Virus record (IMG/VR): IMGVR_UViG_2671180695_000017
DNA length: 8,231 nt
Origin: a virus
Lineage: Duplodnaviria > Heunggongvirae > Uroviricota > Caudoviricetes
Strand: one strand, 5' to 3'
Below the pieces are notes generated by a model that saw only the letters and a list, made by a program, of their open reading frames with translations, was not told where the DNA came from and made no database searches. The translations under genes were made by a program, and so were the position numbers. Position 1 is the stretch's first letter. Each line of letters opens with the position of its first letter. Shown in pieces: positions 2,243 to 7,897 of the stretch.

Positions 2243-3525
2243 GTGCGGGTATTACTTCGACCTGTTCTGGTACCGGAACTCGGGCTGGTGATCGTTAAGC
2301 CGGGCCGTGAATCCATGCCGGTATTCCACAATACCCGGGTACTGGTGGAGCCGGAACCGAAAAGCATGCGTAATCTGTCGTCCGGGGTCGTTCCTGCCGT
2401 TCGCCAGCCGCTGGCGGAGGATAAATCATTACTGCCATTTTTCAGCGACGAACGAGTGATTCGTGCTGCTGGTGGCGCTGGCGCATTGTCTGACTGGTTA
2501 CTGCGCCATGTTAAATCCTGCCAGTGGCCACACGGCGATTATCACCACAGTGAAACCGTCATTCACCGTTATGGTACCGGCGCAATGGTGTTGTGCTGGC
2601 ACTGCGACAACCAGCTGCGCGACCAGACCTCCGAATCACTCGGGCAACTTGCTCACCAAAACCTGTTTGCATGGATGATTGACGTCATACGCCATGCAAT
2701 GAATGGCTCGCAGGAACGGGAATTATCGCTGGCTGAATTATCCTGGTGGGCGGTCCGCAATCAGGTGGCGGACGCGCTACCGGAAGCGGTATTACGTCAG
2801 GTACCGGCGCAATGGTGTTGTGCTGGCACTGCGACAACCAGCTGCGCGACCAGACCTCCGAATCACTCGGGCAACTTGCTCACCAAAACCTGTCTGCATG
2901 GATGATTGACGTCATACTCCATGCAATGATTGGCTCGCAGGAACGGGAATTATCGCTGGCTGAATTATCCTGGTGGGCGGTCCGCAATCAGGTGGCGGAC
3001 GCGCTACCGGAAGCGGTATTACGTCGTTCGCTGGGGTTGCGTGCGGAAAAAATCCGCTCAATGTACCGTGAAAGCGACATCGTACCGGGAGAGCAGACCG
3101 CCACCAGCATACTGAAGCAGCGCACAAAAAATCTTGCGCCGCTGCCTCACGCCCACCAGCAAAACCCGCCACAGGAAAAGACGGTGGTCAGCATTGCCGT
3201 TGATCCGGAGTCACCGGCTCAGTATCTCCAGCGCCAGAAATCACAACGGGAAGAGATGCCTGTATACACGCGTTGGGTAAAAACGCAGAAATGCATGACG
3301 TGTGGCAATCAGGCAGATGATCCGCATCACATCATTGGTCATGGACTGGGAGGGATGGGAACAAAGGCTGATGATTTGTTTGTTATTCCGCTGTGCCGTA
3401 AATGCCATAGCGAACTACACGCCGGGGTAAAAGATTTTGAAGAAAAACACGGCAGCCAGCTGTTGTTGCTGATTCGTTTTTTAATGCACGCGAGAAATTC
3501 GGGTGTTTTGAAGTGGAAAGCATAA
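2243..3525 (+). pseudogene. YbcO-like (DUF1364-type) zinc-binding putative nuclease gene with N-terminal extension, frame-disrupted by a 227-bp tandem duplication
   Basis: GTG at 2243 with GGAGG at 2234-2238. The frame-2 ORF 2243..2905 and the frame-1 ORF 2746..3525 encode the same ~75-aa stretch (GTGAMVLCWHCDNQLRDQTSESLGQLAHQNL...AVRNQVADALPEAVLR) because 2573-2799 is repeated at 2800-3026 (227 nt, equal to 2 mod 3). Removing one copy gives a single continuous 351-codon ORF ending at 3525. The C-terminus (CMTCGNQADDPHHIIGHG...IPLCRKCHSELH) has a CxxC...HH...CxxCH motif and sits directly upstream of rusA, as ybcO does in DLP12. Confidence 0.55.
2573..3026 (+). repeat. Tandem direct duplication, 2 x 227 bp, 3 mismatches between copies
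   Basis: Direct comparison: 2573-2799 and 2800-3026 are identical except three substitutions (ctgtTtgc vs ctgtCtgc; atacGcc vs atacTcc; atgaAtgg vs atgaTtgg). Junction ...attacgtc|ag|gtaccgg. Confidence 0.9.
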
Positions 3526-3906
3526 ATGACTGAACGCATAGAATTTGTTTTGCCTTACCCGCCAACGGTGAACACTTACTGGCGTCGTCGTGGCAGCACA
3601 TATTTTGTATCAAAAGCCGGGGAGCGTTATCGCCGGGCAGTGGCGCTTATTGTTCGCCAGCAGCGGCTGAAATTAAGCCTGTCCGGAAGGTTGGCAATAA
3701 AAATTATTGCAGAACCACCGGATAAGCGCCGCCGTGACCTGGACAATATTCTGAAAGCGCCGCTGGATGCGCTGACGCATGCGGGGTTGCTAATGGACGA
3801 TGAGCAGTTTGATGAAATCAATATCGTTCGTGCTCAGCCAGTATCTGGTGGACGTCTGGGGGTGAAGATTTACCCCATAATGCTTGAAGGGCAGGTCAAA
3901 AAATGA
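3526..3906 (+). CDS. rusA: RusA-family Holliday junction resolvase
   Basis: 126-aa protein with PPDKRRRDLDNILKAPLDALTHAGLLMDDEQ and GGRLGV, matching the conserved RusA core as I recall it for E. coli RusA ([23 protein letters not shown]...DD...GGRL). The ATG overlaps the upstream stop (TAAATG). Confidence 0.85.
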   Translation: MTERIEFVLPYPPTVNTYWRRRGSTYFVSKAGERYRRAVALIVRQQRLKLSLSGRLAIKIIAEPPDKRRRDLDNILKAPLDALTHAGLLMDDEQFDEINIVRAQPVSGGRLGVKIYPIMLEGQVKK

Positions 3907-4724
3907 AACTGGAAGATTTACCGAAATACTACTCCCCAAAATCCCCCGGCCTGACTGATGCATCGGCCTCAACGTCGAAAGATGCGCTGAGTATCACTGA
4001 TGTGATGGCCGCGCAGGGCATGACACCGAATCGGGCTGAGATGGGGTTTTCTGCGTTCCTTGGGAAAATGGGCATTAGTATGAATGACAGAGAGCGGGCA
4101 ACAGAATTGCTGACAGAATATGCACTCAGTCGGTGTGATCGCGTGGCGGCGTTAAGAAAACTCCCGGCAGAAATAAAACCGGTAGTGATGCGCATTATGG
4201 CTTCGTACGCTTTTGAGGATTATGCCCGCAGCGCAGCGAGTAAAAAGCAGTGCCCTTGTTGCTATGGGGAAAAATTTATTGAAAGCGTAGTTTTTACAAA
4301 CAAGGTCCAGTATCCGGATGGTAAGCCGCCGGTATGGGCAAAGTGTACGAAAGGTGTGTATCCGTCTTACTGGGAAGAATGGAAAAAAGTCAGGGAGGTG
4401 GTAAAAGTTGCCTGTCCGGAGTGTGGCGGAAAGGGTGAGGTTTCCACCGCCTGTAAGGATTGCCGTGGGCGTGGTGTCGCCATTCATCGTGAAGAGTCGG
4501 TAAAACGTGGTATGCCTGTTATCAGAGACTGCCAGCGTTGTGGTGGTCGTGGCTGTGAAAGACTACCATCAACGGAGGCATTTAATGCCATATGCAAAGT
4601 GACGAGTGCTATCACGCTTGATACGTGGAAAAAATCAGTGAAACGCTTTTACGATACGTTGGTGGTTCGGTTTGACATTGAAGAGGCATGGGCGGAGCGG
4701 CAGTTAAAGAGGGTAACGCGATAG
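3903..4724 (+). CDS. Putative late-gene antiterminator (Q-like) with DnaJ-type CxxCxGxG zinc-finger repeats
   Basis: Position is diagnostic: directly after rusA (ATGA overlap) and directly before a promoter that matches lambda PR' through its -10 and initial transcribed region. The protein carries CPCC plus three CxxCxGxG repeats (CPECGGKG, CKDCRGRG, CQRCGGRG). The N-terminus resembles what I recall of Qin-prophage Q homologues, but that recollection is not secure. Confidence 0.55.
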   Translation: MKLEDLPKYYSPKSPGLTDASASTSKDALSITDVMAAQGMTPNRAEMGFSAFLGKMGISMNDRERATELLTEYALSRCDRVAALRKLPAEIKPVVMRIMASYAFEDYARSAASKKQCPCCYGEKFIESVVFTNKVQYPDGKPPVWAKCTKGVYPSYWEEWKKVREVVKVACPECGGKGEVSTACKDCRGRGVAIHREESVKRGMPVIRDCQRCGGRGCERLPSTEAFNAICKVTSAITLDTWKKSVKRFYDTLVVRFDIEEAWAERQLKRVTR

Positions 4725-4729
4725 TGTTG

Positions 4730-4770
4730 TTGATTTTTCCCGAATCTGTGGTAAATTTGCTCTAACGATG
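4730..4770 (+). promoter_or_regulatory. Late promoter PR'-like with sigma70-dependent pause element (likely Q-utilisation region)
   Basis: TTGATT (4730-4735), 16-nt spacer, TAAATT (4752-4757), then AACGATGGG (4764-4772). The stretch GGTAAATTTGCTCTAACGATGGG closely parallels lambda PR' as I recall it (GGTAAATTTGACTCAACGATGGG), including the -10-like AACGAT in the initial transcribed region. Confidence 0.5.
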
Positions 4771-4805
4771 GGCGTTTTATGCCTGACGTTAGAAGATTTT
4801 TTACA

Positions 4806-4830
4806 CCCCGCCGCCTGGCGGGTTTTTTAT
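4806..4830 (+). terminator. tR'-like intrinsic terminator downstream of the late promoter
   Basis: Stem CCCGCC / GGCGGG (4807-4812 pairing with 4817-4822), GCCT loop, followed by TTTTTT (4823-4828). Lies ~45-65 nt downstream of the predicted late start, so a short terminated transcript is expected without Q. Confidence 0.6.
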
Positions 4831-4950
4831 GACTGAAATCGCGTCAGTACAGTAAACGCGCTGGTGGCGGTGAATACCTGTCTTTCAGCTTGCTGGCTTT
4901 TTCGACAAGAGTTATTGGTGTGTCACGTTAACCGGAAAAGGGAAAAAGAC

Positions 4951-5148
4951 ATGCTAAAACAGCAGGATATGACAGAAACCGCCAGAGTAGTGTTTAATGA
5001 ATTAAGCGTTACCGAACCGGCGACAGTCGGGGAGATTGCACAGAATACTTACCTTTCACGCGAACGCTGCCAGTTAATACTGACCCAGCTGGTTATGGCG
5101 GGTCTGGCAGACTATCAGTTCGGTTGTTACAGACGCCTTCCGCAGTGA
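4951..5148 (+). CDS. Small putative winged-helix DNA-binding protein (65 aa)
   Basis: ATG at 4951 with AAGGG SD about 8 nt upstream. I prefer this over the tracked GTG at 4864, which has no SD. The stretch TVGEIAQNTYLSRERCQLILTQLVMAGL looks like a helix-turn-helix or winged-helix recognition region. First gene of the Q-dependent late transcript. Confidence 0.45.
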   Translation: MLKQQDMTETARVVFNELSVTEPATVGEIAQNTYLSRERCQLILTQLVMAGLADYQFGCYRRLPQ

Positions 5149-5160
5149 AGGCTTTTTTAT
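5135..5160 (+). terminator. Intrinsic terminator overlapping the stop codon of the small wHTH gene
   Basis: Stem GCCTTC / GAAGGC (5135-5140 pairing with 5147-5152), loop CGCAGT, then TTTTTT (5153-5158). The TGA stop (5146-5148) lies inside the hairpin. Confidence 0.5.
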
Positions 5161-5175
5161 TTGTGGTAAATGGGC

Positions 5176-5206
5176 GGCTGGTGGGTGTTAGGGGCACCCA
5201 CCAGCC
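5176..5206. repeat. Perfect 12-bp inverted repeat with 7-nt spacer in the methyltransferase leader
   Basis: GGCTGGTGGGTG ttagggg CACCCACCAGCC, with no T-run after it. Two further hairpins follow (5248-5266, stem CTGCTTT/AAAGCAG; 5271-5289, stem AGCCT/AGGCT) before the methyltransferase ATG at 5299. Confidence 0.7.
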
Positions 5207-5298
5207 ATCTGCTCATGCGTTGGGTTCACAAGCAAACCTCAGGCCCACTGCTTTGCGCAAAAGCAGAATGAGCCTATCAGAGACAGGCTTAATGATCC

Positions 5299-6348
5299 AT
5301 GCTTAATACTGTAAAAATATCCAGTTGTGAGTTAATCAACGCCGACTGCCTGGAATTTATCCGGTCGTTACCCGAAAATTCTGTTGACCTGATAGTCACG
5401 GACCCGCCGTACTTTAAAGTGAAGCCTGAGGGCTGGGATAACCAGTGGAAGGGCGACGATGATTACCTGAAGTGGCTGGACCAGTGTCTGGCGCAGTTCT
5501 GGCGGGTGCTGAAACCTGCCGGAAGTCTTTACCTGTTCTGTGGTCATCGCCTGGCATCTGATATCGAAATCATGATGCGTGAACGCTTCAGTGTGCTGAA
5601 CCATATTATCTGGGCGAAGCCGTCCGGACGCTGGAACGGATGCAACAAGGAAAGCCTGCGGGCGTATTTCCCCGCCACAGAGCGCATTCTGTTCGCGGAA
5701 CATTATCAGGGGCCGTATCGTCCGAAAGATGCCGGGTATGCGGCGAAGGGCAGTGCACTGAAACAGCATGTGATGGCCCCGCTGATTTCTTACTTTCGTG
5801 ATGCGCGCGCGGCCCTGGGGATAACGGCAAAACAGATTGCAGATGCCACAGGAAAGAAAAACATGGTGTCGCACTGGTTCAGTGCCAGTCAGTGGCAGCT
5901 ACCGAACGAAAGCGATTATCTGAAATTACAGTCGCTGTTTGCCCGGGTGGCAGAAGAGAAACATCAGCGCGGTGAACTGGAAAAGCCCCACCACCAGCTG
6001 GTGGATACGTATACGTCACTGAACCGGCAGTATGTGGAGCTGCAGAGTGAATATAAGCATCTGCGGCGGTATTTTGGTGTGACGGCGCAGGTGCCGTACA
6101 CGGATGTGTGGACACATAAACCGGTGCAGTTCTATCCCGGGAAACATCCGTGCGAAAAACCGGCAGAAATGCTGCAGCAGATAATCAGCGCAAGCAGTCG
6201 TCCGGGTGACCTGGTTGCAGATTTTTTTATGGGCTCAGGTTCAACGGTAAAAGCTGCACTGGCGCTCGGGCGTCGTGCGATTGGCGTTGAACTGGAGACC
6301 GGACGTTTTGAGCAGACAGTCAGGGAAGTTCAGGATTTAATCGTTTGA
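5299..6348 (+). CDS. Orphan DNA methyltransferase, beta-class (DPPY motif IV N-terminal, FxGxG motif I C-terminal); probably N6-adenine-specific
   Basis: DPPYF at residues 35-39 (nt 5401-5415) and FFMGSGST near the C-terminus (around nt 6224-6247), in the circularly permuted order typical of beta-class amino-methyltransferases. No restriction endonuclease gene is adjacent. Confidence 0.85.
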   Translation: MLNTVKISSCELINADCLEFIRSLPENSVDLIVTDPPYFKVKPEGWDNQWKGDDDYLKWLDQCLAQFWRVLKPAGSLYLFCGHRLASDIEIMMRERFSVLNHIIWAKPSGRWNGCNKESLRAYFPATERILFAEHYQGPYRPKDAGYAAKGSALKQHVMAPLISYFRDARAALGITAKQIADATGKKNMVSHWFSASQWQLPNESDYLKLQSLFARVAEEKHQRGELEKPHHQLVDTYTSLNRQYVELQSEYKHLRRYFGVTAQVPYTDVWTHKPVQFYPGKHPCEKPAEMLQQIISASSRPGDLVADFFMGSGSTVKAALALGRRAIGVELETGRFEQTVREVQDLIV

Positions 6349-6397
6349 AACGGATGAGATTGCAGAATTAATTACGCACCATTATTATTCTGCTTCC

Positions 6398-6473
6398 GGC
6401 CCTTTAGCTCAGTGGTGAGAGCGAGCGACTCATAATCGCCAGGTCGCTGGTTCAAATCCAGCAAGGGCCACCA
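6398..6473 (+). tRNA. tRNA with CAU anticodon, closest to E. coli tRNA-Ile2 (lysidine type, reads AUA); phage ileZ-like
   Basis: Manual cloverleaf: acceptor GGCCCTT/AAGGGCC, D-arm GCTC-AGTGGTGA-GAGC, anticodon loop CTCATAA (CAT at 6431-6433), T-arm GCTGG-TTCAAAT-CCAGC, discriminator A plus encoded CCA. Very similar to E. coli ileX as I recall it. Position 27-43 is an A-C mismatch. Confidence 0.85.
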
Positions 6474-6480
6474 TCACAAA

Positions 6481-6560
6481 CCGCCATTAGCTTATCAGGA
6501 AGAGCAGACGACACGATAACAGGGTTGTTGGTGCGGGGGCGGGTCCCCGATGGCGGTCCA
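6481..6560 (+). pseudogene. Degenerate tRNA-like element between the two tRNAs (possible decayed argN-type tRNA)
   Basis: A 7-bp acceptor-like stem (CCGCCAT 6481-6487 pairing with ATGGCGG 6550-6556) followed by TCCA, a plausible D-arm (GCTT-ATCAGGAA-GAGC) and a 5-bp GC T-like stem (6534-6538 / 6545-6549). But the T-loop is 6 nt (GCGGGT, not TTCRANY) and I could not fold a canonical anticodon arm. Confidence 0.25.
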
Positions 6561-6573
6561 TTATCGGTATTCA

Positions 6574-6650
6574 GCGTTGTTAGCTCAGCCGGACAGAGCA
6601 ATTGCCTTCTAAGCAATCGGTCACTGGTTCGAATCCAGTACAGCGCGCCA
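6574..6650 (+). tRNA. tRNA-Arg (anticodon UCU, reads AGA/AGG); phage argO/argN-like
   Basis: Manual cloverleaf: acceptor GCGTTGT/ACAGCGC (one G-U pair), D-arm GCTC-AGCCGGACA-GAGC, anticodon stem ATTGC/GCAAT with loop CTTCTAA (TCT at 6608-6610), T-arm ACTGG-TTCGAAT-CCAGT, discriminator G plus CCA. Resembles E. coli argU. Confidence 0.85.
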
Positions 6651-6757
6651 TATTCATTCTTCCAGATTCCTTTCGGCAGAGCCTTATACTGAAATATACC
6701 TGGCTCAGGATATTGTTGAAAATATTATATGTTTGTCAAAAATAAAAGTTCTGTTAA

Positions 6758-7281: not shown

Positions 7282-7505
7282 CCGGGTATCAGTTAGCGGG
7301 AGAAATTTTTAAATACTTCACAATTCAGGCGGTTGATTGTTGTCTGGTTTGCGGGGAGTTTGTTAAAAGAAACTGGCATGGTGAATCCCCCTGTGCGGAG
7401 GGGCAATCAGCGAGTAGGTATATGGGATAATCGCGGATTCAGGTGCTGGTACTGAATTCACCGGGAGGCACCCGGCACCATGCAATGGCACATAGCGCCA
7501 CTCTC

Positions 7506-7535
7506 CAGCCCCTCTCCGGAGGGGCTGTTTATATT
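7506..7535 (+). terminator. Strong intrinsic terminator (+ strand) between the convergent cargo ORFs
   Basis: Perfect 9-bp GC-rich stem CAGCCCCTC / GAGGGGCTG (7506-7514 pairing with 7519-7527), TCCG tetraloop, followed by TTTATATTGATTTT. The opposite strand lacks a T-tract after the hairpin, so it is oriented to stop + strand transcripts. Confidence 0.55.
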
Positions 7536-7561
7536 GATTTTGTCAGATGTGAGTAAACTCC

Positions 7562-7897
7562 TTATGGACTTTGTTGTTTTAGTCCATAAGGACATATTTG
7601 CAGAGTGCAACGGTTATTAAAGCATTCATTCAATACGTTATCTGTATTTGTAGGGCATTCCTGGCTGTTTTTGATTAAATTCCAGAATGTTTTATTGAAT
7701 GGTACTACGTTGTAAATGGTTACAGGTAGCACTTTGTTATTGAGCATGATGCCTGTGTGAGTCAGTGTAAATATACTTTCAGGAGGTAAGAAAGCATCCG
7801 ATTGATACCAGATTATTAATTTTATTTTACTCCATATGACTGAAAAAGATATTCCGCATGATGGCTGGATAACTGTATCAATCACAATCCACTTCAT
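7562..7897 (-). CDS. Hypothetical cargo protein (111 aa) with C-terminal cysteine cluster, encoded antisense to the late operon
   Basis: ATG (7895-7897 on the minus strand) preceded by AAGGA with a 5-nt spacer. C-terminal C-x10-C-x4-C-x4-C pattern ([23 protein letters not shown]). The last 9 codons and the TAA stop lie inside a perfect 10-bp hairpin (7561-7590). About 33% GC. Confidence 0.45.

Follow-up and report, generated by a model that had tools for sequence, protein, structure and literature searches.

The window analysed here is the whole 8,231-nucleotide (nt) stretch of the virus record IMGVR_UViG_2671180695_000017. This 8.2-kb window is part of a lambdoid Escherichia coli prophage, and ST131/O25b:H4 chromosomes match its full length at 98.8%. 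It contains a small open reading frame (ORF) of 65 amino acids (aa), an intrinsic terminator, a perfect 12-bp palindrome, two further hairpins and a DPPY methyltransferase, all at the positions that an earlier note on this DNA had given. Between the terminator and the methylase lies a leader of ~139 nt, which is a conserved element across Enterobacterales, tied to the methylase and apparently undescribed. The module is largely known already, and the conserved leader is its one new item. The features of the module are as follows.

4951 to 5148, plus strand: gene of the 65-aa winged-helix protein, PHROG 331 (function unknown); from the ORF, homologs, ratio of nonsynonymous to synonymous substitution (dN/dS) and fold
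5135 to 5159, plus strand: P0, a hairpin with a U-run, the second terminator between the putative late promoter and the methylase; from the terminator scan
5163 to 5298, plus strand: conserved structured methylase leader, ~139 nt counting the ATG; from the covariance model R1
5176 to 5206, plus strand: P1, perfect 12-bp inverted repeat and leader stem 1, arms 5176–5187 and 5195–5206, with 7 nt between the arms
5208 to 5236, plus strand: P2 hairpin, UCUGCU ... AGCAAA; from covariation
5242 to 5274, plus strand: P3, GGCCCAC ... GCUUU-loop-AAAGC ... (A/G)UGAGCC; from the fold, with alternative partners for GGCCCAC
5271 to 5298, plus strand: last hairpin (5271–5289, AGCCUAUCAGAGACAGGCU) and start region; from the hairpin scan
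5299 to 6348, plus strand: orphan beta-class N6-adenine DNA methyltransferase of the M.EcoGII / M.EcoGI / M.EcoMV family, 349 aa, PF01555

As the same arrangement was found in 47 loci at species level and on more than 130 viral contigs, the features of the module are not due to chance. Of 5426 complete E. coli genomes, 2521 match the 1.7-kb module region, as do Stx2a/c/d phages, phage 1720a-02 and phiP27. The covariance model R1 was built from 44 leader sequences on the plus strand. In every long-form locus, R1 gives exactly one plus-strand match, which abuts the ATG. The 47 genome loci score 111–175 bits; of the Morganellaceae viral loci, 63 score 104–129 bits, and one divergent locus reaches 77 bits. 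When the viral contigs were scanned with a 21-nt leader motif, independently of the protein, the methylase start was located 130–132 nt 3' of the motif in 74 of the 77 usable cases. Among the exceptions, one methylase is frameshifted by a 1-nt insertion, and two leaders are followed by another gene just after P1. The viral contigs L178 (minus strand, motif at 10300) and L216 (minus strand, motif at 431) retain the small gene, its terminator and P1, but a different, 237-aa gene (MVVVCSVIMVCSPINIF...) stands in place of the remaining leader and methylase, and the mosaic joint is located just after P1.

In pairwise comparison, the leaders are on average 81% identical, compared with 70% for the coding sequence of the methylase (83% when only the first two codon positions are counted) and 40% for the 200 nt on the 5' side. 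The leader is non-coding, as every frame has stops, and its length ranges from 136 to 142 nt. A hidden overlapping 60-aa ORF (5124–5306) was considered and ruled out, because stops occur in all frames and the leader length shifts by 1–2 nt. The unpaired segments and loops form invariant columns and are as conserved as the stems. Rfam 15 was searched over the window and then over the 200-nt region at E values up to 10, and only sub-threshold chance matches were obtained in the leader; the best was P26 on the minus strand, with 24.2 bits against a threshold of 36. Literature searches for an RNA motif upstream of these methylases, in which subscription journals were thinly covered, gave nothing relevant. 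The available passages of PMC5778455, PMC4659465 and PMC11551740 mention neither an upstream leader nor the 65-aa gene.

The conservation continues into the coding sequence. The identity at third codon positions is 0.83 in codons 1–10 of the methylase, compared with 0.46 overall. In codons 4–9, a conserved hairpin ACUGU-N8-ACAGU is present (76 loci; in the window, ACUG at 5308–5311 and CAGU at 5322–5325), in which Thr is always encoded by ACU and Ser always by AGU. This hairpin accounts for the conservation of synonymous sites where the coding sequence begins. The start region has no Shine–Dalgarno sequence, and a GATC is conserved at 5294–5297. The fixed spacing to the ATG, the absence of a Shine–Dalgarno sequence and the conserved synonymous sites in codons 1–10 are indirect signs that the leader may act on expression of the methylase.

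A shorter form of the leader is found in Xenorhabdus and Photorhabdus (L046–L080), ~90 nt 5' of the methylase. Retained in it are GGUGAAAUGG, UUCACC/UUCGCC and a P1-like hairpin, which resembles a terminator in that a U-run often comes after it. GGUGAA can pair either with UUCACC around the hairpin or with the 3' arm of the hairpin, which gives this form an attenuator-like look.

The leader of the window folds with a z-score of -4.45 on the plus strand. P1 as RNA has a free energy of -29.9 kcal/mol and a z-score of -4.96. By our own rough estimate, not derived from a tool, chance would give ~0.01 perfect 12-bp repeats with a short spacer per 8.2 kb. In the alignment, 97.7% of the P1 cells are paired and compensatory change is observed at 6 of 11 pairs. 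The arms occur in 29 distinct pairs, for example GGCUGGAUGGUG/CACCGUUCCAGCC, GACUGUAAAGGUG/CACCCUUACAGUC, GACAGUGAGGAUG/CAUCCCCACUGUC and GACCGAUGAGUG/CACACAUCGGUC. Downstream of P1, the hairpin region 5208–5267 is 83% complementary by the inverted-repeat scan. In P2, one column pair reads CG:21 UA:19 AU:8 UG:4 and another reads CG:37 UA:35, and the P2 of locus L345 is a perfect UUUGCCUG/CAGGCAAA. The alternative pairings of P3 have only one or two compensatory events each, so that any fold of this part is tentative.

Several segments of the leader have more than one partner. GGCCCAC can pair with the 5' UGGGC, the downstream GUGAGCC or the 5' arm of P1, and UUCGCU can pair with AGCGAA of P2 or with the 5' GUGAA. 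The pairing AUGGGC:GCUCAU can extend P1 to a duplex of ~20 bp. GGUCA in the P2 loop can pair with UGAUC just 5' of the ATG; this pairing is kept in 95% of cells, and both sides are lost in the two most divergent leaders. Over 75 distinct sequences, 15 pairs show double changes, compared with 10.0 ± 1.1 in shuffled alignments (0/500), and the covariation score is 0.178, compared with 0.103 for the shuffles and 0.03–0.07 for slid partners. Pair counts based on MAFFT with 44 sequences point in the same direction and are weaker. RNAalifold on the first alignment gave only P1 and a doubtful closing helix, and alternative folds built by hand were not separable by pair counts. These results indicate that the P1 and P2 helices are kept by compensatory substitution.

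The methylase matches PF01555 (N6_N4_Mtase) with E = 2.3e-44 over residues 29–340. DPPY is located at residues 35–38, and FxGxG is present as FMGSG near residues 311–315, corresponding to the beta-class order of DPPY, target-recognition domain (TRD) and FxGxG. No endonuclease candidate was found nearby, the neighbours being the winged-helix gene, tRNAs, a PHROG of unknown function, STnc100 and an IraM-like gene. PADLOC gave only methyltransferase models, besides a marginal SWIM_XIII match on the 65-aa protein (E = 0.0035, 14 bits), which was taken as noise. The gene is thus an orphan beta-class methyltransferase, as had been proposed from the sequence. The exact protein is present on at least 1000 contigs.

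The window methylase and M.EcoGII are identical at 331/350 positions (~95%). The M.EcoGII sequence was machine-read from a PDF supplement (PMC11551740, Supplementary Table S1, the part of that paper used here), and a few of the mismatches, part of the ~17 substitutions, are reading noise. Within the TRD (residues 160–237), the single substitution is S191P, and T239S and S240E are located just beyond its C-terminal edge. M.EcoGI and M.EcoGII share 333/349 residues according to the available text of PMC5778455. Thus, the window enzyme is as close to M.EcoGII as M.EcoGI is. From the available passages of Murray et al. (PMC5778455), M.EcoGII is a 349-aa, beta-class, prophage-borne enzyme that modifies adenine in any context in double-stranded DNA, single-stranded DNA and RNA; it is unexpressed in its lysogen, and its constitutive expression is deleterious and slows growth. 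The same passages name phage 1720a-02 as the carrier of a very similar enzyme, and this phage is matched by the module region at 94.8% DNA identity. M.EcoGI is also reported, in the passages at hand, to be non-specific. The passages available from PMC4659465 describe M.EcoMV of ST131 strain EC958, which has 99% identity to M.EcoGI, as non-specific and as untranscribed during laboratory growth and in the lysogen.

According to the 95% identity and the conservation of the TRD, the window methylase probably targets any adenine and is non-specific. The earlier note had called the target unknown and had taken the lack of a methylation motif as a refutation. Both points need revision: the target of such an enzyme is already known from M.EcoGII, as far as the passages at hand describe it, and a methylome with no motif is exactly the expected signature. 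Its suggestion of anti-restriction self-methylation during lytic growth agrees with a role already proposed for M.EcoGII-type enzymes (PMC5778455, in the passages available).

In about ten Xenorhabdus loci (L046, L047, L048, L054–L057, L068, L077 and L080), the methylase frame reads ATG GAA TAA, with a stop at codon 3 (near locus position 2989–3001), and the conserved N-terminus continues after the stop. In other such loci (also L053 and L059), a 1-nt insertion puts the methylase ATG out of frame. These disrupted starts reflect recoding of some form, or else a toxic gene has been inactivated repeatedly.

The 65-aa ORF is a real gene, since its dN/dS is ~0.11. The exact protein is found on at least 1000 contigs. 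Of the 78 species-level loci, ~60 have a homolog (37–98% identity) 76–200 nt 5' of the methylase, and they range from Escherichia to Xenorhabdus, Photorhabdus and Providencia. The single-sequence AlphaFold2 model was unusable (pLDDT 53), and the model made with an alignment has a pLDDT of 92 and the topology H1-b-H2-H3-b-hairpin, in which the beta-hairpin forms the wing. Foldseek matched this model to IclR/MarR DNA-binding domains, O-methyltransferase dimerisation domains, SelB and Zalpha, with TM scores of 0.7–0.8. These results bear out the winged-helix assignment made previously. Pfam matches are weak (DprA_WH in 12/20 members and TrmB in 11/20), and a profile search against the PDB sequences gave only weak winged-helix matches. 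No match to an Xre-type helix-turn-helix (HTH_3) was found, but only to the winged-helix families DprA_WH, TrmB, HTH_20, Rrf2 and MarR_2. The predicted model indicates a generic winged helix, from whose fold the ligand cannot be inferred.

A small DNA-binding protein beside a palindrome recalls the controller (C) proteins and operators of restriction-modification systems, and the earlier note drew this likeness, with the palindrome as a possible operator of the small protein. The protein would then be a C-protein-like regulator, and the 12-bp palindrome a DNA operator that switches transcription of the methylase. The DNA-binding type of the fold, the position of the small gene immediately 5' of the methylase in most loci of many genera, and the perfect dyad in the window are all compatible with such a regulator. 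C-boxes, however, sit upstream of the C gene, whereas the site here is located 3' of the small gene and its terminator, 28 nt past the stop codon, and the promoter scan gave no promoter overlapping or 3' of the site. The fold is also not of the Xre type. Furthermore, 13 loci without the small gene keep the palindrome and the whole leader at full score (R1 scores of 120–173 bits) in at least five different upstream contexts. Thus, the small gene is a frequent but dispensable partner of the methylase. Finally, the 29 compensatory P1 variants are accompanied by an unchanged conserved helix RCQLILTQLxMAGL in the protein, and P1 differs in sequence among Providencia loci whose protein is of the same type. 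The likeness to a controller and its operator therefore does not hold, and we consider such a switch highly improbable; the obvious reading of a regulator beside its operator is probably wrong here. A role of the palindrome as an RNA processing site is possible.

The upstream and downstream features of the late operon are as follows.

3903 to 4724, plus strand: Q antiterminator gene, lambda-Q type, 273 aa; Pfam Antiterm PF03589, 2.5e-50; PHROG anti-termination protein, Q-like
4730 to 4769, plus strand: putative late promoter pR', TTGATT, 16 nt, TGgTAAATT; read by eye
4807 to 4828, plus strand: tR'-like intrinsic terminator CCCGCC GCCT GGCGGG TTTTTT; from the terminator scan and RNA fold
6398 to 6650, plus strand: two phage tRNA genes, with CAU anticodon (6398–6473) and Arg-UCU (6574–6650); from ARAGORN, Rfam and RefSeq

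The Q protein is homologous to the lambda Q structures 7ubm and 4mo1 (E = 2e-38). It has 273 aa, compared with 207 aa for the matched lambda Q chain, and carries a CxxCxGxG zinc-finger-like insertion with a weak match to DnaJ_CXXCXGXG, the DnaJ central domain, at residues ~171–217. The exact position of pR', just 3' of the Q stop codon, is a sequence-based assignment and remains putative. An AACGAT element resembling a -10 pause element was also read by eye at 4764–4769, 3' of the putative pR'. The candidate TAAATT -10 and AACGAT element resemble the -10 and the pause inducer of lambda pR'. The predicted RNA that ends at tR' in lysogens is ~65 nt. In P0, the hairpin at 5135–5152 is followed by TTTTTTAT, and its loop holds the TGA stop of the small gene (5146–5148). 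This stop-codon hairpin is found again in other genera with different sequences and a variable U-run.

One locus with 99.9% identity carries, from 5' to 3', Q, small ORF, methylase, three tRNAs, a nanS-like esterase, holin, lysozyme and terminase. In phiP27 the order is a Q-like gene, a GIY-YIG nuclease, small ORF, methylase, tRNAs, stx2e and lysis genes. In Salmonella, Klebsiella, Enterobacter, Mixta and Trabulsiella, holin and endolysin are located directly 3' of the methylase, and the Q types differ on the 5' side. The lysis genes are outside the window and are placed 3' of the methylase from such near-identical and related loci. With Q on the 5' side and lysis genes on the 3' side, the module is best read as the cassette that opens the Q-dependent late operon of a lambdoid prophage, and its assignment to the late operon is supported. 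The tRNAs 3' of the methylase are seen only in E. coli-type loci; the first is called Met (CAU) by ARAGORN, and RefSeq gives tRNA-Ile (ileZ-like, presumably lysidine-modified) for the identical gene.

In the accepted model of such late operons, transcription from the constitutive pR' ends at tR' in lysogens, and Q-modified polymerase alone reads through (PMC7547250). Termination in lysogens and Q-dependent readthrough explain the reported silence of the methylase in lysogens. The hairpins could then be a mere stack of terminators or insulators, silencing the toxic methylase until Q-modified polymerase arrives. Both tR' and P0 have U-runs in the window, the P1-equivalent hairpin of Xenorhabdus is often followed by UUUU, and in the loci L004 and L017 a tR'-type terminator is located directly 5' of the leader, all in line with a stack of this kind. 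P1 itself has no U-tract in the window and in most Enterobacteriaceae, where its 3' flank reads AUCUGCUC or AUUCGCUC. Termination needs neither loops and unpaired segments as conserved as the stems, nor a fixed distance of 130–132 nt to the ATG, nor conservation into codons 1–10. We therefore regard a passive stack as an unlikely account of the leader.

Our preferred explanation combines the Q-gated late cassette with a cis-acting leader that controls translation of a toxic methylase, and we consider this combination probable. In the lysogen, pR' would make a short RNA ending at tR' (4807–4828), and the methylase would not be made; the terminator at 5135–5159 would back up tR'. Gating by Q over two terminators is established for this type of operon and is extended to the window by analogy. 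Upon induction, the lambda-type Q would render RNA polymerase terminator-resistant, and the late transcript would then extend over the 65-aa gene and the ~139-nt leader into the methylase, tRNA, lysis and structural genes. The replicating phage DNA would be blanket-marked, so that the progeny could be protected from most adenine-sensitive restriction systems. Because a non-specific methylase harms the cell, its output may be gated further by the leader, through P1, P2, P3, the last hairpin, the hairpin in codons 4–9 and the fixed distance to the ATG without a Shine–Dalgarno sequence. The leader may set the amount or timing of methylase translation, possibly via alternative pairings. The P1 duplex, ~20 bp with its extension, would be a plausible RNase III substrate. 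When RNase III cleavage was mimicked by 5'-truncation after P1, the start site was not opened in the prediction (unpaired probability 0.40, compared with 0.43). A trans-acting factor may also take part, which could be a metabolite or one of the two proteins of the module, the winged-helix protein and the methylase.

A further proposal, which we regard as possible rather than probable, is that the leader forms, together with the initial 30 nt of the coding sequence, a new class of cis-regulatory RNA, responsive to a ligand or a protein. The effector could be S-adenosylmethionine or S-adenosylhomocysteine, the co-encoded winged-helix protein or the methylase. M.EcoGII methylates RNA (PMC5778455, in the passages available), and thus N6-methylation of adenines in its own leader could give feedback. 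A switch would agree better than a passive stack of hairpins with the invariant unpaired nucleotides, with the mutually exclusive partners of GGCCCAC and UUCGCU, and with the conservation of the leader across Enterobacterales.

Several results weigh against leader control at the RNA level and against the Q-gated arrangement with which it is combined. The strict consensus promoter scan listed no promoter at the putative pR'. The alignment behind the strongest covariation counts was fitted to the R1 model. The helices P3 outer, J, P4 and GGUCA:UGAUC are too conserved for the covariation test and compete with each other. The unpaired probability of the start region is 0.43, compared with 0.53 in shuffled leaders, which is a weak effect and corresponds to modest occlusion. 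In most variants, the P3 apex is palindromic through its centre, which an RNA hairpin does not need. The wobble test of the strand is contradictory, as P1 has 30 G.U against 16 A.C on the plus strand, whereas P2 has 4 G.U against 80 A.C. Action of the leader at the RNA level is argued from the covariation and the fixed link to the ATG. As the wobble test is contradictory and the P3 apex is palindromic, an antisense RNA and a DNA-level site were kept as rivals.

The 80 A.C of P2 on the plus strand would be G.U on the minus strand, and the minus strand of the leader folds equally well, with a z-score of -4.70. The functional RNA could accordingly be a cis-antisense RNA over the leader and start, which, like a type I antitoxin, would silence leaky methylase mRNA in lysogens. 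The methylase is toxic, and the hok/sok pair elsewhere in the window follows the same logic in this prophage. On the other hand, no promoter-like site was found on either strand in 4600–6700, no clear terminator is present on the minus strand, and P1 and the last helix are richer in G.U on the plus strand. The minus-strand matches of R1, a model built on the plus strand, are limited to P1, with 13–18 bits. Together, these results make an antisense RNA very unlikely.

A DNA-level element was considered from the Chi sites (GCTGGTGG), which are located at 2468, 3101, 3153, 4860, 5177, 5198, 5991, 5997 and 7218. These nine sites in the window compare with 0.28 expected from shuffles. The E. coli genome has about one Chi per 4–5 kb, and the prophage is denser. 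In L001, a 19.7-kb stretch from a prophage of this type, 11 Chi are present, seven of them in the orientation of late transcription. Each P1 arm of the E. coli version contains a Chi octamer. The leader could hold an opposed Chi pair that protects replicating or packaged DNA from RecBCD, or dyad sites, especially P3, for a dimeric protein such as the methylase. The 5' arm with forward Chi is kept in 36 of 44 Enterobacteriaceae-type leaders, and the P3 apex is a perfect palindrome through the centre in most variants (AGCGCT, TACGCGTA, TGTGCACA, TGTGTACACA; in the window, a GCGC core within TGCGCA). The reverse Chi, however, is present in only 3 of 44 leaders, Chi occupies both arms in only 3 of 44, and in many Morganellaceae leaders both Chi are replaced by unrelated, still complementary sequence. 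The Chi pair was thus ruled out as the reason for the palindrome, and the Chi content of the P1 arms is incidental. The second Chi palindrome, at 5991–6004, merely encodes the conserved HHQLV motif of the methylase. A DNA site also leaves the fixed ATG spacing and the covariation of P2 unexplained, and we give such an element hardly any credence.

Other genes of the window were identified from the ORF list, Pfam and Rfam. The gene order from 5' to 3' is DUF977, QueH, hok/sok, DUF968, RusA, the 273-aa Q and the region of the small ORF and methylase. The QueH (epoxyqueuosine reductase) gene is located in the early region of the prophage at 722–1408. The hok/sok type I toxin-antitoxin pair is located in the early-right region at 1476–1801, with a sok RNA of 120 bits (Rfam) and a Hok-like ORF at 1589–1801. 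The DUF968/HNH-like gene holds a 226-nt direct repeat (2573–2798 and 2800–3025, 99% identity, 227-nt period). This tandem duplication of 227 bp splits the gene into two overlapping ORFs (2243–2905 and 2746–3525), and in the near-identical locus L001 the gene is single and intact (1056 nt). On the 3' side of the tRNAs, an STnc100 small RNA (7347–7536, plus strand, 132 bits) adjoins a convergent gene of an IraM-like anti-adaptor (7562–7897, minus strand, 111 aa, NCBIfam PRK09919, 162 bits). These two are placed at the position where Stx phages carry stx.

The M.EcoGII family is a widely used chromatin-footprinting reagent. It is probably a broad anti-restriction device, and about half of the sequenced E. 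coli genomes as well as Stx2 phages carry the family. How such a dangerous methylase activity is kept off and then released is unexplained in the literature covered. The leader fused to the start codon is a candidate for this control; if so, it would add a layer of structured RNA to lambdoid late regulation. The leader is also relevant to cloning of the gene with its native flanks.

Among known systems, the closest are M.EcoGII and M.EcoGI of O104:H4 C227-11 and M.EcoMV of ST131 EC958, which share with the window enzyme the length of 349 aa, ~95% identity, the motif order, the prophage location and the orphan state. At the sequence level, no functional difference from this family is detectable for the window enzyme.

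The late control resembles the lambda Q/pR'/tR' system and StxS in the lambda-Q homolog, the nearby intrinsic terminator, and a candidate TAAATT -10 with an AACGAT pause-like element, the pR' part being read by eye. By analogy, the late genes would be expressed through terminator-resistant polymerase alone. The lambda 6S RNA is 194 nt. The terminated RNA here would be ~65 nt, compared with 258 nt for StxS (PMC7547250). The window differs from lambda in the zinc-finger-like insert of Q, and in the second terminator and structured leader before the first large late gene.

The C proteins and C-boxes of type II restriction-modification systems are similar in that a gene of a small protein with a DNA-binding fold is located near a methyltransferase, with a dyad between them. 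In the window, however, the fold is a winged helix and not an Xre helix-turn-helix, the dyad is located 3' of the gene and terminator, and no endonuclease is present. The dyad also persists without the protein and evolves by compensatory change.

Structured phage leaders that set translation include the RNase III-processed lambda N leader and the alternative structures of lambda cIII. The leader here is similar in having a long stable duplex and competing pairings just 5' of the start codon, and P1 with AUGGGC:GCUCAU, ~20 bp, is of a size that RNase III accepts. No sequence relationship to the lambda N and cIII leaders is present, and its processing or switching is a proposal. In contrast to these leaders, the window leader is far more conserved across genera and reaches into the coding sequence.

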